A stretch of DNA of 64,000 nucleotides from Alphaproteobacteria bacterium (GTDB lineage Bacteria > Pseudomonadota > Alphaproteobacteria > Rs-D84). Shown in pieces: positions 36,880 through 41,731 of the stretch (its first letter is position 1; every line of letters begins with the position of its first letter). The DNA lies in the NCBI GenBank assembly GCA_017472065.1, contig JAFURB010000010.1:270-64269 (forward strand), read 5' to 3'. Position numbers and translations under genes: made by a program. The notes beneath the pieces were generated by a model, which was not told where the DNA came from, searched no databases, and saw only the letters and a list, made by a program, of their open reading frames with translations.

Positions 36880-37746
36880 TTAGACTGAAAACTGTGTGTT
36901 TGCATAAAATGTCTGGGGGGCGCGGCCCATGGGGCGGATTACAATTGGCGTGGTGGAAATGGCGCCAGCCAATGCATCCAATCCATCGTCATGCCCCACC
37001 CCACCAATTGGTGACCACCCCAGCATTTCCGAAATTAGCGGTGTTTGCCGCACACGCATATGGGCATACAAATGCCCAGATGTCAGCAACGGTTCAATTG
37101 CATCCAGGATTCTGTCGGCCTTGTTACGACTGTTCGTGATTTTGTTGACATAGATATTTTCGCCATGATGTTTTGCCACATCAGACATGATTTCAGGCAA
37201 CGCATTGCCAATTCCGTTTGTTTCAATCGTTATACGGCGTATTGTGTAACGACGCATAAAATCCAGAACCATTTGACATTGGATGTTTAATGGGTGCGTT
37301 TCTGTATCTGGGACATGCATGTACGTGACATCATGGATGAACACATTGTGATTCTTGTCATCACGGTATATCAGGACACAGACACTGTCGTCTGATTTGT
37401 GACGGCCACTGGACGGGTCCCAATATATGGACGCCCCCGATATTTGATTCGAACCCAATCGCGCCGCGTGTATATCCAAGGTGTCTTCATAAAAGTGAAT
37501 TTGCCCCGGATCCAGCCGAATTCGTTCCGGTGGGACAAATTCCAACATCATTTGTGATGAAAAATGACGCGGTCCCACAATTTGCCGCATCTGATTTATC
37601 TTTTCAGTCGGGAAAAGTTCGGGCCACGCAGGCACACCATTGGCATCAAGTATCGGAATTTTCAATAATTTATATCCTGATAAAAAAGGCATTGAAAAAG
37701 CATTTTTTTCATATACCATTGGCGTTAAGGAAAAGGATTTTGACAT
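36880..37746 (-). pseudogene. Terminase large subunit, C-terminal (nuclease) fragment, T7 gp19-like
   Basis: ..SGYKLLKIPIL...WPELFP..., FSSQMMLEFVP and HDDGLDALAGAI align with T7 gp19 [22 protein letters not shown] and HDDRLDALALGI. It has no ATPase domain of its own. The upstream part of track ORF 36880..37821 is antisense to dnaB. Confidence 0.75.
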
Positions 37747-39301
37747 GGATTTTACCCCCAAGACTTTGCCAACTAATTTAGAAGCAGAACAGGCAGTGTT
37801 GGCCGCCGTATTAATGAACAATCGTGCGTTGGAACGCGTGTCTGAATTCTTAAAAGCCGAACACTTTTATCACCCGGCACACCAGGGAATCTATAAACTG
37901 GCCGAACGCCAGTTTGCCGCCGGGATTCCGTTTGATATTATCACTGCAAAAAACTATCTGGACCAACAAGGGGTCTTGGAATCCGTTGGGGGCGTTGATT
38001 ACCTGACAAAATTGTCCGGCGCGGGTGCGACGGTTGTTAATGTCGAACAACATGGACGCATCGTTTATGAAAATGCCCAGCGGCGACAACTGATTAACCT
38101 GGCCCAGGATATTATGGATAATGCATTTGTCGAAGACTTGGACAATCCAGTTAATCGCCAAATCGAAATCGCAGAACAAAAGTTATTCGATATGGCAACA
38201 ACCGGCGATTCCGAACGCGATGTCATTTCAATTGCAACCGCGCTACAGGCCGCCCTGAGGGAAGCAGAAACCGCATACAAGGCCGACGGACAGTTATCTG
38301 GGTTGACGACAGGACTGACGGCGTTGGACAAATCAATTAGTGGTTTGCACCATTCTGATTTGATTATTATCGCGGGTCGTCCGGCGATGGGTAAAACAAC
38401 ACTGGCCATGAATATCGCATTTAATGCCGCAAATGCAATTCATTATGGGATGGCAAATAAAAACTATAAAGGCGTGGTGGTATTTTTCAGTTTGGAAATG
38501 TCACATTCACAATTGGCGGCACGTGTTCTGTCATCACAATCCAAGGTGCCGGCATCTGCGATGCGTGAAGGTAACCTGACGGATGAAGATATGCTGAAAA
38601 TGACACAATATGCCGATGCAATCAGCAAAATCCCGTTATGCATCGATGATACGCCGGGCATGTCGGTTCCAATGATGCGTACACGCGCAAGACGATTAGC
38701 ACGCAAATACGGTGGAATTGCGTTGATTGTGGTGGACTATCTGCAATTGATGACATCGCCGGGTGGCAAGCGCAGCGACAACCGCGTTCAAGAAATTTCC
38801 GAAATCACGCGTGGATTAAAAATGCTGGCCAAGGAATTGGATGTTCCGGTTATTGCACTGTCCCAGTTGTCGCGTAGTGTTGAACAGCGCGATGATAAAC
38901 GCCCCCAGTTGGCCGATCTGCGTGAATCTGGATCAATTGAACAAGACGCCGACATTGTTATGTTCACGTATCGTGAAGAATACTATCTGGCAAACAGAAA
39001 TCCATCCGAAAGAATTTCAAACACAACAAATTCATCCATGGTCGAATCATGGCAAAAACGATATGAACAATCCCGTGGCAAGGCCGATATTATCATTGGT
39101 AAAAACCGTCATGGTCGCCCTGAAACAGTACGCACTGCGTTCTTTGGCGATTACAGTTTGTTCGATAATTTACCGGATGAATTTGACACACGGGGCGAAA
39201 ATGTTTCCGCACAACCAAGTGCCAGCATACCACTGGACGGGTCTGAATTTGCACCAACACCAATTGACATTGATGCAATTCCAGACGATATGCCGTTGTG
39301 A
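37745..39301 (+). CDS. dnaB: Replicative DNA helicase DnaB (with acidic C-terminal tail)
   Basis: LPTNLEAEQAVLAAVL, Walker A GRPAMGKTT, LSQLSRSVEQR, RESGSIEQDADIV. Start set to ATG 37745 after AAGGAAAAGG. Confidence 0.92.
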   Translation: MDFTPKTLPTNLEAEQAVLAAVLMNNRALERVSEFLKAEHFYHPAHQGIYKLAERQFAAGIPFDIITAKNYLDQQGVLESVGGVDYLTKLSGAGATVVNVEQHGRIVYENAQRRQLINLAQDIMDNAFVEDLDNPVNRQIEIAEQKLFDMATTGDSERDVISIATALQAALREAETAYKADGQLSGLTTGLTALDKSISGLHHSDLIIIAGRPAMGKTTLAMNIAFNAANAIHYGMANKNYKGVVVFFSLEMSHSQLAARVLSSQSKVPASAMREGNLTDEDMLKMTQYADAISKIPLCIDDTPGMSVPMMRTRARRLARKYGGIALIVVDYLQLMTSPGGKRSDNRVQEISEITRGLKMLAKELDVPVIALSQLSRSVEQRDDKRPQLADLRESGSIEQDADIVMFTYREEYYLANRNPSERISNTTNSSMVESWQKRYEQSRGKADIIIGKNRHGRPETVRTAFFGDYSLFDNLPDEFDTRGENVSAQPSASIPLDGSEFAPTPIDIDAIPDDMPL

Positions 39302-39377
39302 TGAATTATTTTACTTGCCAAGCCCTTAAAAATTGACTATTATTTTGTCAAGATTATGTTTTTTAAGGAGTTGCACA

Positions 39378-40436: not shown

Positions 40437-41093
40437 ATGAAAGCACGAATAACCGCCACGGCACAAAAACTGTTGAACCTGTATCGCCAAGAACACGTTA
40501 TCATCGGTGGATGGGCGGCGATTAATCCTATATTTGTTGCCGAAGCAACCGAAGATGTAATCAAAGAATTACGCGAAATGCCAACTGGTAAAATGCTGGT
40601 CCAGCATATCGAAAACCTGAAAAGCGGTAAAACACCAATGAATTCAATTGAACCAGAACTGGTCCCGTATGGTGGGATGATGGGACAATCTGGATTGACT
40701 GATATCAGGTTGGTGGCCAAGGATTTATCTGAACTGCAATCCGCGATAAATGCATTTACACCCGACCAAAGCGGTCTGAACATGATTTCAGAATTGCCAT
40801 TGGTGCGCCGATTTGGCGAAGAGTGGCAAAATGCAATCCGTGATGCATTGGGACAGTATCCAGATATCCAGGCCAAGTGGGATGTTGTTATTAAAACATA
40901 TCGCGCATATCAATTATGGGACAGTGCCAGCCAGATTGTTAACGAACCAATTGATGAACGCACACGCGCCGAAATCCAGGCCGATATGCCAGAATATGAA
41001 ACATACCTGCCGATGTTTGGGGATGCGGGAAATGAATTGCTGACCAGATTGCGTACATTTATTAGTTCTGTTAAATCAGACGAAAACGCATAA
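40437..41093 (+). CDS. Hypothetical protein (218 aa)
   Basis: ORF with a GAGAGAG purine tract upstream. No family recognised. Its stop faces the stop of the terminase N-fragment across the palindrome CGCATAAAATTATGCG. Confidence 0.45.
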   Translation: MKARITATAQKLLNLYRQEHVIIGGWAAINPIFVAEATEDVIKELREMPTGKMLVQHIENLKSGKTPMNSIEPELVPYGGMMGQSGLTDIRLVAKDLSELQSAINAFTPDQSGLNMISELPLVRRFGEEWQNAIRDALGQYPDIQAKWDVVIKTYRAYQLWDSASQIVNEPIDERTRAEIQADMPEYETYLPMFGDAGNELLTRLRTFISSVKSDENA

Positions 41094-41095
41094 AA

Positions 41096-41731
41096 TTATG
41101 CGGTGCGATATATCGTATCCATCGTATGTGGTGTCCCAATATAAATCATTGCCCCATTTGGCGACAGAATAAAATCCAGTTCACGCAATCGTTCACGCAA
41201 ATTTTCCCGTTTTTGTGCGGTGTTTGATGTATTTGGAACCTCGACATCGTCACAGATTATTAAATCTGCACGCATACCAGTTATGTTGCCATGGATACCC
41301 TGGCAAATCACAGATGGTTCACGAATTCCAATTGGACGATTTATGGTTATTCGGTCGGATGCCCAATCGCGACGCGATGACGGAATCAGGTCCGCACACA
41401 ATGGATGATTTTCCAGAATATGACGAATATGCATAACCATACGCGATGCCAGTGTCGTATGCGCCGACAGAATCAATATTCGGGTCTGGGGGCATAACAG
41501 CAATGTACACGCAGCAAAAATTCCAACAACTGTTGATTTGCCAGAATGTCGAAATGCCATCAACAGTCCACGATGTGTATCATCACACAGAACCCCGACC
41601 AGAAATTCCATAATCTGGCGGTGATGGGTGGGCGTTTCATACCCCAGGACACGATTCCATGTATCCAGAAAGTTATAATAGGCCGTAATCATCACTGATG
41701 TTACCAGGGGTGGTGGATGTGATAAATCCAT
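41096..41731 (-). pseudogene. Terminase large subunit, N-terminal (ATPase) fragment, T7 gp19-like
   Basis: Walker A FRHSGKST, Walker B DLIICDDVE, ends ..IYIGTPHTMDTIYRTA* where T7 gp19 reads [20 protein letters not shown]. The continuation lies 3.3 kb away at 36880..37746. Confidence 0.8.

Follow-up and report, generated by a model that had tools for sequence, protein, structure and literature searches.

A T7-type large terminase gene split by a dnaB operon within a podovirus-like gene cluster of Candidatus Enterousia

The stretch of DNA analysed here (64,000 nucleotides of contig JAFURB010000010.1, assembly GCA_017472065.1, positions 270 to 64,269; hereafter the window) comes from Candidatus Enterousia (Alphaproteobacteria, order Rs-D84), and carries a T7-type large terminase (TerL) gene that is split into two minus-strand open reading frames (ORFs), TerL-N (41096-41731) and TerL-C (36880-37746). 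The two are parted by a 3.35 kb plus-strand block (37745-41093) encoding the replicative helicase DnaB, a regulator with two helix-turn-helix (HTH) domains, and a protein of 218 amino acids (aa). Both halves belong to a podovirus-like cluster of ~13 kb, extending from an endolysin to a portal gene, and the same arrangement is intact in ~80 species genomes. Judged from sequence conservation, this arrangement is probably a working two-gene terminase rather than a dead gene. We consider it reasonably probable that the locus as a whole is a domesticated, podovirus-derived and vertically inherited particle cluster resembling gene transfer agents (GTAs), in which fission of the large-terminase gene has given rise to a two-polypeptide terminase.

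The principal features, with positions in the window, are as follows.

36880-37746, minus: TerL-C, 288 aa, last third of the ATPase domain plus RNase H-like nuclease (WDPS, IETNG, HDDGLDA)
37692-37719, plus: candidate dnaB promoter, TTGAAA-16 nt-TACCAT, within TerL-C codons 10-19
37745-39301, plus: dnaB, 518 aa, host-type replicative helicase by hidden Markov model (HMM) score
39378-40385, plus: two-HTH regulator, 335 aa from ATG 39378, two Pfam HTH_3 matches (Xre-type) and a C-terminal domain of ~150 aa
40437-41093, plus: 218-aa protein closing the dnaB operon, with an intact ORF in 83 of 85 loci
41096-41731, minus: TerL-N, first two-thirds of the ATPase domain, with Walker A (FRHSGKST), Walker B and catalytic Glu (LIICDDVE) and motif III (GTP)

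Two halves of one terminase

A sequence-only reading of the window had described a gp19-like terminase cleanly parted by an opposite-strand block containing a full-length dnaB, and both ORFs are found where it placed them. Profile searches agree that they are contiguous halves of one protein. In phrog_38 (PHROG), TerL-N corresponds to profile positions 272-460 and TerL-C to 478-705; in NF033889 (termin_lrg_T7, NCBIfam), TerL-N corresponds to positions 3-190 with 225.5 bits, and TerL-C alone to 220/223-500 with 108.9 bits, under the curated cut-off of 150 bits. Fusing the two in silico yields a single match, in which residues 19-474 align to positions 3-500 of the 500-position profile at 340 bits. 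Coverage by the two ORFs is therefore complementary, as the earlier reading had supposed; the few residues that it believed lost at the break are all there, the fusion being a complete termin_lrg_T7 match.

The fusion is colinear with unsplit relatives of ~500 aa, which are 45-52% identical over TerL-N, and TerL-N is 33% identical to residues 10-210 of T7 gp19. TerL-N stops 10 residues past motif III; TerL-C opens with the remaining ATPase part (a beta-strand and the lid helices, ~80-105 aa) and matches Pfam Terminase-T7_RNaseH-like and Terminase_6C, the latter beginning at residue 107. A variable loop, flanked by GTPHT.DTIY and PFL.GY, contains the break, and the conserved residues are all present. 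Compared with the T7-type enzymes (T7 gp19; PhiV-1, PDB 8DGC), the Enterousia protein shares family, predicted fold, Walker A and B, motif III and the nuclease motifs, but lacks ~90 residues of T7-specific insertions and the C-terminal tail. In contrast to these single-chain terminases, ATPase and nuclease lie on separate ORFs in all species examined, in two genes 3.35 kb apart on a bacterial chromosome with host-like vertical inheritance.

Modelled in AlphaFold2 with 70 unsplit relatives, the fusion reaches a mean predicted local distance difference test score (pLDDT) of 91.4 and a predicted template modelling score of 0.86 (a single-sequence model, with pLDDT 34, was set aside). Its sole low-confidence internal stretch (residues ~211-230) contains the junction (211/212), and forms a coil between the strands at 189-199 and 237-241. 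The top PDB match is the terminase of the T7-like phage PhiV-1 (8dgc_E, E=2e-26), and other full-length terminases also match. ATPase-only structures align to the model over ~281-287 columns, which exceeds the 211 residues of TerL-N, and in TerL-C the nuclease HMM begins only at residue 107; in the predicted fold the cut is thus within the ATPase domain and not at the linker between ATPase and nuclease.

When one genome per GTDB species was scanned, at least 591 matches were obtained. The best 80 of these belong to Candidatus Enterousia or to Alphaproteobacteria of animal and human guts, and include a circular long-read genome of 958,618 bp (OZ007020.1). Homologues of TerL-N number in the hundreds (~200 aa, 75-86% identity), and where a source is given, as for a few, it is a metagenome-assembled genome labelled Alphaproteobacteria bacterium. 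An identical arrangement was found on 12 independent metagenome contigs, and the agreement of these with ~80 species-level metagenome-assembled genomes, circular OZ007020.1 among them, excludes the misassembly that had been raised as a concern. Members of order Rs-D84, Enterousia have genomes mostly below 1 Mb that are under reductive pressure; the paper describing them makes no mention of phages or GTAs (PMC12306168).

Gene order and strands, as traced by tblastn of the window proteins, are constant across these loci: scaffold, capsid, tube A, tube B, 115-aa protein, (fibre), TerL-N, then on the opposite strand the 218-aa protein, HTH regulator and DnaB, followed by TerL-C, portal, Bbp19-like and 87-aa proteins. 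The conserved block continues upstream through a hydrophobic ORF, endolysin-like, BirA-like, 155-aa and 93-aa HTH genes. Flanking host genes are BamA and YraN on one side and a biotin-ligase-like gene and LpxI on the other, and the flanks past the block are variable.

ORFs of the cluster are full-length in nearly every locus; the TerL halves are so across 70-85 loci, and TerL-N in all 85 of 85. Of the TerL-N motifs, Walker A, Walker B and its catalytic Glu, and motif III are invariant in 13 of 13 aligned sequences and in a family alignment of 71; in TerL-C the acidic nuclease residues (D/E/D) are invariant in 70 sequences, and WDPS, ETNG and HDDGLDA are invariant or nearly so. Ratios of nonsynonymous to synonymous change (dN/dS; median Nei-Gojobori values, to be read with synonymous differences near saturation) are low throughout:

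DnaB 0.064; capsid 0.070; portal 0.073; HTH regulator 0.079
TerL-N 0.105; TerL-C 0.169; scaffold 0.196; 218-aa protein 0.215

The cluster genes all lie within 0.07-0.26. Across species pairs, the protein distances of DnaB correlate strongly with those of the particle genes (rho 0.71-0.87), which indicates their joint vertical descent, and TerL-C distances follow those of portal and capsid (rho 0.75-0.83). Shared arrangement, intact ORFs, low dN/dS, invariant motifs and co-divergence together rule out both a dead gene and misassembly; the 'dead phage packaging gene' of the sequence-only reading does not agree with halves that are intact in 70-81 species, under purifying selection, and invariant at their catalytic centres.

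The dnaB operon and its junctions with the terminase halves

DnaB scores 605.9 bits against the equivalog NF006606 (cut-off 540) and 503 bits against TIGR00665 (cut-off 385), and matches both Pfam DnaB and DnaB_C; against the phage model TIGR03600 (phage_DnaB) it reaches 413.5 bits, under the cut-off of 498.65. These scores point to a replicative helicase of host rather than phage type, and the best match in real phage genomes is only 42-43% identical. The top DnaB match labelled 'Bacteriophage sp.' (MT835812.1, L096) was rejected, being a bacterial chromosomal contig that carries MurJ, an MFS transporter, YgjP, Bax1-I and DnaB. The 64-kb window contains no second dnaB; the gene has the lowest dN/dS of the locus and ranks among its most conserved. 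The tail of the protein (window 39160-39301) is variable and acidic, ~40 residues long, with the conserved motif IPDDMPL at its tip (50 of 75 species have DMPL), and we take it to recall the acidic C-terminal interaction motifs of SSB and T7 gp4.

The N-terminal part of the two-HTH regulator is 86-99% identical between species. No HMM supports the S24-like domain that had been ascribed to this protein. Its one full-length homologue (35% identity), on an unrelated contig, lies beside a weak TrbL/VirB6-like match below the Pfam cut-off, a neighbour that hints at a mobile element. Another 'Bacteriophage sp.' record that matched the DnaB and regulator searches (MT835708) was discarded, being an unrelated contig that lacks a terminase in the vicinity. 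Pfam, PHROG and NCBIfam give no match for the 218-aa protein, which is likewise without a phage match.

At the left junction the start codons of dnaB (ATG 37745-37747, plus) and TerL-C (ATG 37746-37744, minus) overlap by 2 nucleotides (nt) in a shared CATG at 37744-37747. A CATG whose minus-strand ATG is in frame and open into TerL-C is found in 70 of 72 loci, in all three spacer classes (7, 22 and 25 nt). Starts at TTG 37821 or ATG 37719 were considered and rejected in favour of this conserved one; at 37719, where gene callers begin TerL-C in the window species, half of the species have ATA, ATC or AGA instead. Each gene carries candidate signals of the other. A GGGG/GGAG Shine-Dalgarno-like run lies 7-12 nt upstream of the TerL-C ATG, within dnaB codons 4-5, and the candidate dnaB promoter lies inside TerL-C, where in 44 of 72 loci TTGAAA-16-TAC(C/T)AT keeps a constant spacing to the dnaB ATG. 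The TerL-C codons that bear this element show a third-codon-position identity of 0.86, versus 0.45 over the rest of the gene.

The right junction, where TerL-N and the 218-aa gene end tail to tail, leaves 2-60 nt between their stop codons across loci (median gap 15 nt), and a terminator-like hairpin occurs between these convergent genes in only 1 of 81 loci. In the window the stops are 2 nt apart, and the palindrome CGCATAAAATTATGCG at 41087-41102, to which attention had been drawn together with the facing stops, is indeed present; it is specific to the window species, in which two Ala-TAA endings happen to meet. Neither direct nor inverted repeats were found to link the two junctions, and the target-site duplication that had been suggested as a check was not found either. 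No Rfam intron family matches between 34.5 and 48.5 kb (E<=1), and HMM scans of the block and flanking ORFs detect no intein, endonuclease or recombinase domain, in agreement with the earlier impression that intein, intron and homing-endonuclease signatures are missing. A head-to-head start overlap between a host-type dnaB and a phage-derived gene, and convergence without a terminator, are unusual.

At its other end TerL-N overlaps the fibre gene by 59 nt (41673-41731). Third positions of its first 20 codons are more conserved (0.65-0.68) than the amino acids (0.28-0.47), as is expected from dual coding of fibre and TerL-N.

The particle cluster and its transcription signals

The remaining genes of the conserved block are all encoded on the minus strand, and are given here in order along that strand.

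49496-49777, minus: 93-aa Cro/C1-type HTH protein, first gene of the conserved block, candidate regulator
48977-49444, minus: 155-aa protein, always between the 93-aa HTH and BirA-like genes, candidate regulator, syntenic in 61 of 81 loci
48322-49005, minus: BirA-like host gene, biotin/lipoate-ligase family (BPL_LplA_LipB, E=1.5e-17), syntenic in 62 of 81 loci
47720-48130, minus: endolysin-like protein, 136 aa (phrog_938, E=3e-8), syntenic in 62 of 81 loci
47523-47711, minus: 62-aa hydrophobic protein in holin position, syntenic in 62 loci
46861-47517, minus: scaffold/capsid-assembly protein, 218 aa (Pfam Phage_T7_Capsid; phrog_3742), dN/dS 0.196
46276-46755, minus: Lys/Ala/Pro-repeat histone H1-like (Hc2-type) protein, 159 aa (Pfam HC2, E=1e-12)
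45227-46054, minus: major capsid protein, 275 aa (phrog_3437, E=2e-71), dN/dS 0.070
44962-45195, minus: 77-aa phage protein (phrog_18004, E=7e-12), in 73 of 81 loci
44359-44877, minus: tail tubular protein A (phrog_394, E=2e-28; Pfam Tube, E=1.9e-4, just under the gathering cut-off)
42631-44352, minus: tail tubular protein B (phrog_376, E=1e-83)
42243-42590, minus: 115-aa protein, no family match, conserved in 80 loci
41673-42230, minus: short tail fibre, T7 fibre N-terminal domain only (Pfam Phage_T7_tail, phrog_1640)
35620-36849, minus: portal (head-to-tail connector), 409 aa (Pfam Head-tail_con, E=7e-82), dN/dS 0.073
35423-35614, minus: Bbp19-like small phage protein (Pfam Phage_Bbp19, E=2e-13)
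35156-35419, minus: 87-aa membrane protein with weak XhlA-like similarity, last cluster gene

Several of the small proteins can be assigned only provisionally. The 93-aa protein matches Pfam HTH_26 with E=3e-4 (21.4 bits, against a gathering cut-off of 22); its gene lies upstream of the cluster in 59 of 81 loci with 82-95% identity, and most of the other loci end on that side. The 155-aa protein has no Pfam or PHROG match, and by eye its C-terminus bears a putative resemblance to a winged helix. No family in Pfam or PHROG matches the 62-aa hydrophobic protein, which by its position may be a holin. For the 115-aa protein, a weak homologue of which lies directly upstream of the unsplit TerL in an uncultured phage contig (L089), a small terminase or an internal protein is possible. 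The Hc2-type protein could belong to the nucleoid, or be carried by the particle as a DNA-condensing cargo; the gap between scaffold and capsid in which it lies has a median of 716 nt in 63 loci, and an ORF is called there in the window-species loci and in one other (L018). The fibre gene occupies its usual position, between the 115-aa gene and TerL-N, in ~61-68 of 81 loci. At one locus (L053) a 40%-identical copy of the fibre lies ~9 kb away, at 19406-19786. In HMM scans of this locus none of the ORFs of the block, several small ones of which have no family, was recognised as an integrase, a phage polymerase or a phage replication initiator.

The nearest relatives of the particle genes are uncultured podovirus-like contigs with the same module and an unsplit TerL (capsid 56-62%, TerL-N 46-57% identity). 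The uninterrupted relatives that the sequence-only reading had proposed to look for exist as phage-like contigs with a single TerL ORF of ~500 aa. Module order in the IMG/VR uncultivated viral genomes (L087-L090), MT838907 and the Pelagibacter podophages is as in Enterousia (portal, Bbp19, scaffold, capsid, tube A, tube B, TerL); the 77-aa protein is shared with MT838907 and the 115-aa protein with L089. This last, the longest of the uncultured contigs, has a long fibre of 597 aa and extra genes after TerL, whereas in Enterousia the cluster is shorter and has host genes in between. Among cultured phages the Pelagibacter podophages are nearest (capsid 46%, EXVC031P Hodr); the annotation of Hodr lists hypothetical proteins only and adds no context.

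Candidate transcription signals punctuate the cluster at conserved positions.

48261-48289, minus: candidate late promoter, TTGACT-17 nt-TATAAT with an upstream TG, 11 of 12 consensus matches
48165-48233, minus: two tandem intrinsic-terminator hairpins with T-runs (48233-48215, 48189-48171), in the leader between late promoter and endolysin ATG
46182-46253, minus: two tandem hairpins with T-runs upstream of capsid, the second a conserved palindrome, TCAGTCAGA ... TCTGACTGA
44909-44932, minus: strong hairpin terminator after the capsid and 77-aa genes, ~30 nt before the tube A ATG, in 67 of 72 loci
35131-35156: bidirectional terminator after the 87-aa gene; a downstream terminator-like hairpin is found in 36 of 64 loci

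The sequence of the late promoter (CTTGACTTTT ... AAAATATGATA) is conserved in an alignment of 62 loci. The tandem leader hairpins precede the endolysin Shine-Dalgarno sequence, and a terminator-like hairpin is present in the leader of 62 of 62 loci, with stems that vary between species while pairing is kept. Between scaffold and capsid such a hairpin occurs in 63 of 63 loci. There the palindrome TCAGTCAGA ... TCTGACTGA with its T-run (46189-46216, minus) keeps its sequence from species to species, which the other terminator stems do not, and may be a protein-binding site besides a terminator. The hairpin after the capsid takes the position of terminator T-phi in T7; no conserved promoter was seen between it and tube A. 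A sigma-54-like motif upstream of capsid (TGGCGCA, 4 nt, TTGCA) was rejected, as its spacing is correct in only 12 of 72 loci. Across 72 loci no position-conserved TerL-C promoter was found inside dnaB.

Late control in lambda couples a constitutive promoter (PR') and a terminator (tR') with the antiterminator Q. The Enterousia cluster shares with it, as a pattern of sequence, a strong promoter followed by terminators ~25-90 nt on, ahead of the lysis and structural genes; in contrast to lambda, with its Q, no antiterminator is recognised in the cluster. The three conserved regulators are candidates for that part. Antitermination control has been reported for CcGTA (PMC11150451), which the internal terminators of Enterousia recall.

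Readings of the locus

If the locus is the domesticated, GTA-like cluster that we favour, TerL-N and TerL-C would be translated as two polypeptides that join non-covalently into one packaging ATPase-nuclease. The strand and lid helices of TerL-C would complete the fold begun by TerL-N, as suggested by the position of the break in a long disordered surface loop within the ATPase domain. The dnaB operon is welded to the two halves through overlapping starts, the embedded candidate promoter and Shine-Dalgarno-like run, and the lack of a convergent terminator. Late transcription would begin at the conserved strong promoter upstream of the endolysin, with two terminators directly after it, so that the late genes would need read-through, by leakiness or by processive antitermination. 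TerL-C, portal, Bbp19 and 87-aa genes would be reached only once the internal terminators had been passed, and then probably by 3.3 kb of transcription antisense through the dnaB operon. A further step, possible but doubtful, is that the split is a functional interlock: head-on antisense transcription would silence the helicase and the two-HTH regulator, making a one-way switch, and the overlap of signals with a probably essential gene would shield the 13-kb element from deletion.

In one Enterousia species (L018; JAZLBQ010000007.1, 8900-14350) two deletions have removed the genes from capsid to fibre as well as those for the nuclease and the portal. The dnaB operon and an intact TerL-N remain, together with the first ~95 TerL-C codons, which have become fused into the Bbp19 tail. 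This pattern fits an accessory cluster whose terminase edges are protected, since those edges carry dnaB signals.

Several points weigh against a GTA-like particle with a two-chain terminase. Particle production, packaging of DNA and association of the halves are inferred from sequence evidence. The break lies inside the ATPase fold and not in an interdomain linker, so activity of the two chains is not guaranteed. No small terminase or DNA-ejection proteins were identified among the cluster genes, and the fibre is a stub, undetected in its usual place in roughly a quarter of species. The cluster is dispensable in the locus that has lost its capsid-to-fibre, nuclease and portal genes. As for transcription, neither HMMs nor Rfam recognise an antiterminator protein or RNA; the in-line terminators could be leaky attenuators; and a promoter-like site at about -270 of TerL-C, within dnaB, occurs in 22 of 72 loci.

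It is unlikely, though still to be taken seriously, that the cluster is kept for a purpose other than DNA transfer: as a protein shell, as a device for lysis or of bacteriocin-like type, or with the halves separately co-opted, say as nuclease and ATPase, for defence or for DNA metabolism linked to DnaB. The lack of recognised small terminase and ejection proteins and the frequently missing stub of a fibre would suit such a use, and the physical and regulatory welding to dnaB suggests a role linked to replication. However, capsid, scaffold, portal and both terminase active centres are jointly constrained, as a DNA-packaging particle needs, and TerL-C diverges in step with portal and capsid. Tailocin-like devices are not known to have capsid, scaffold, portal and terminase parts.

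The sequence-only reading had also considered a phage early segment inverted into the late region. In this form the locus would be an active or recently active temperate phage whose helicase and repressor genes were inverted or transposed into the late genes, dnaB being a phage gene. DnaB-family helicases and Xre/CI-type repressors are frequent in phages, the mobile-element hint beside the regulator homologue points the same way, and in Bartonella a helicase and origin derived from a phage (ROR) are coupled to the GTA (PMC3610622). We nevertheless find this explanation improbable. DnaB passes NF006606, fails phage_DnaB, and is at most 43% identical to real phage DnaBs; the 218-aa protein is without a phage match; dnaB has the lowest dN/dS and was retained when particle genes were deleted; no phage replication module or polymerase was found in the block; and the cluster co-diverges with dnaB. 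Nor can one inversion leave both terminase halves on one strand, by which a single inversion is rejected.

Genes restored by excision are well known from the sigK skin element, the nifD elements and phage regulatory switches, and producer cells that lyse could afford to lose dnaB. It is nonetheless very improbable that the halves are rejoined before use into a single chain, whether by DNA excision of the 3.3-kb block, by trans-splicing or a giant intron, or by a split intein. As in skin-like, intron- or intein-split genes, kilobases interrupt a coding sequence, but at the Enterousia locus there is no recombinase in or beside the block, no junction repeat, and neither intron RNA nor intein by the Rfam and HMM scans above; the junctions differ between species in length and sequence; the insert is a conserved operon that includes a host-type dnaB; and the halves have a stop codon (TerL-N) and a start codon (TerL-C) of their own, unlike excisable, intron or intein interruptions. 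A split intein is further disfavoured because the end of TerL-N and the start of TerL-C are short variable peptides, too short to hold one.

We give almost no credence to a decaying prophage remnant with a terminase killed by insertion and left as functionless pseudogene pieces: a 3.3 kb opposite-strand interruption normally means inactivation, and one locus has indeed deleted much of the cluster, but the halves are full-length in 70-85 loci, with dN/dS of 0.105 and 0.169 near synonymous saturation and invariant catalytic motifs, the neighbouring structural genes are equally constrained in genomes below 1 Mb under reductive pressure (PMC12306168), and the overlapping signals, from which the constraint might otherwise come, span only ~60 nt.

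The domesticated-cluster reading finds its closest counterparts in the GTAs (RcGTA, CcGTA, FpGTA), which like the Enterousia locus combine head, tail, terminase and lysis genes in a host-inherited cluster under purifying selection, with no phage replication module found. In contrast to RcGTA, the Enterousia genes resemble those of T7 and the Pelagibacter podophages and are not HK97/RcGTA-like, and their likeness to GTAs is read from sequence. A podovirus-like GTA-type element in gut bacteria, FpGTA of Faecalibacterium, was recently reported (PMC12946183). Bartonella BaGTA with its ROR likewise ties a replicative helicase gene to a domesticated particle cluster (PMC3610622). There, however, the helicase is phage-derived, part of a lambda-like initiator-helicase module with its own origin on a separate segment, whereas in Enterousia it scores as host type and lies inside the terminase; no origin-like repeats were seen at the Enterousia locus. 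In gene set and architecture the Enterousia cluster is unlike both FpGTA and the Bartonella system. BaGTA/ROR was rejected as the identity of the locus, as genes and organism differ. In the literature, the only mention of split or interrupted terminases was in papers on jumbo gut phages, and no chromosomal split maintained by selection was found.

If the halves cooperate, they would form a natural two-chain viral packaging motor, cut within the ATPase fold, which would bear on how terminase subunits fold and on the engineering of split packaging enzymes. The locus would then also represent a previously undescribed podovirus-derived, GTA-like element in a widespread uncultured gut lineage, whose genomes of less than 1 Mb nevertheless devote ~1.4% of their DNA to the cluster. 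It offers a compact natural case for studying antisense or transcription-collision control, and the entrenchment of accessory elements beside core genes.

A few more sequences complete the survey. Two loci of an unrelated bacterial lineage (L092 and L093, 8001-9480) carry a TerL of 43-44% identity with a split at the same loop. Its parts are adjacent, overlapping by 8 nt (GGAGGAGTTGGGGGATGGGTGA) in a run of five G, and belong to a remnant without capsid genes. Besides a real fission, this may reflect a frameshift, a pseudogene or an error in sequencing the homopolymer, and because of these alternatives little weight is placed on it. Two short TerL-N-like proteins from other lineages (P0232 and P0140) were set aside as uninterpretable, their contigs being only 1.1-1.2 kb long. 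Finally, one TerL-C homologue (P0272, 402 aa) contains an exact internal tandem duplication of ~120 residues, probably an assembly artefact.

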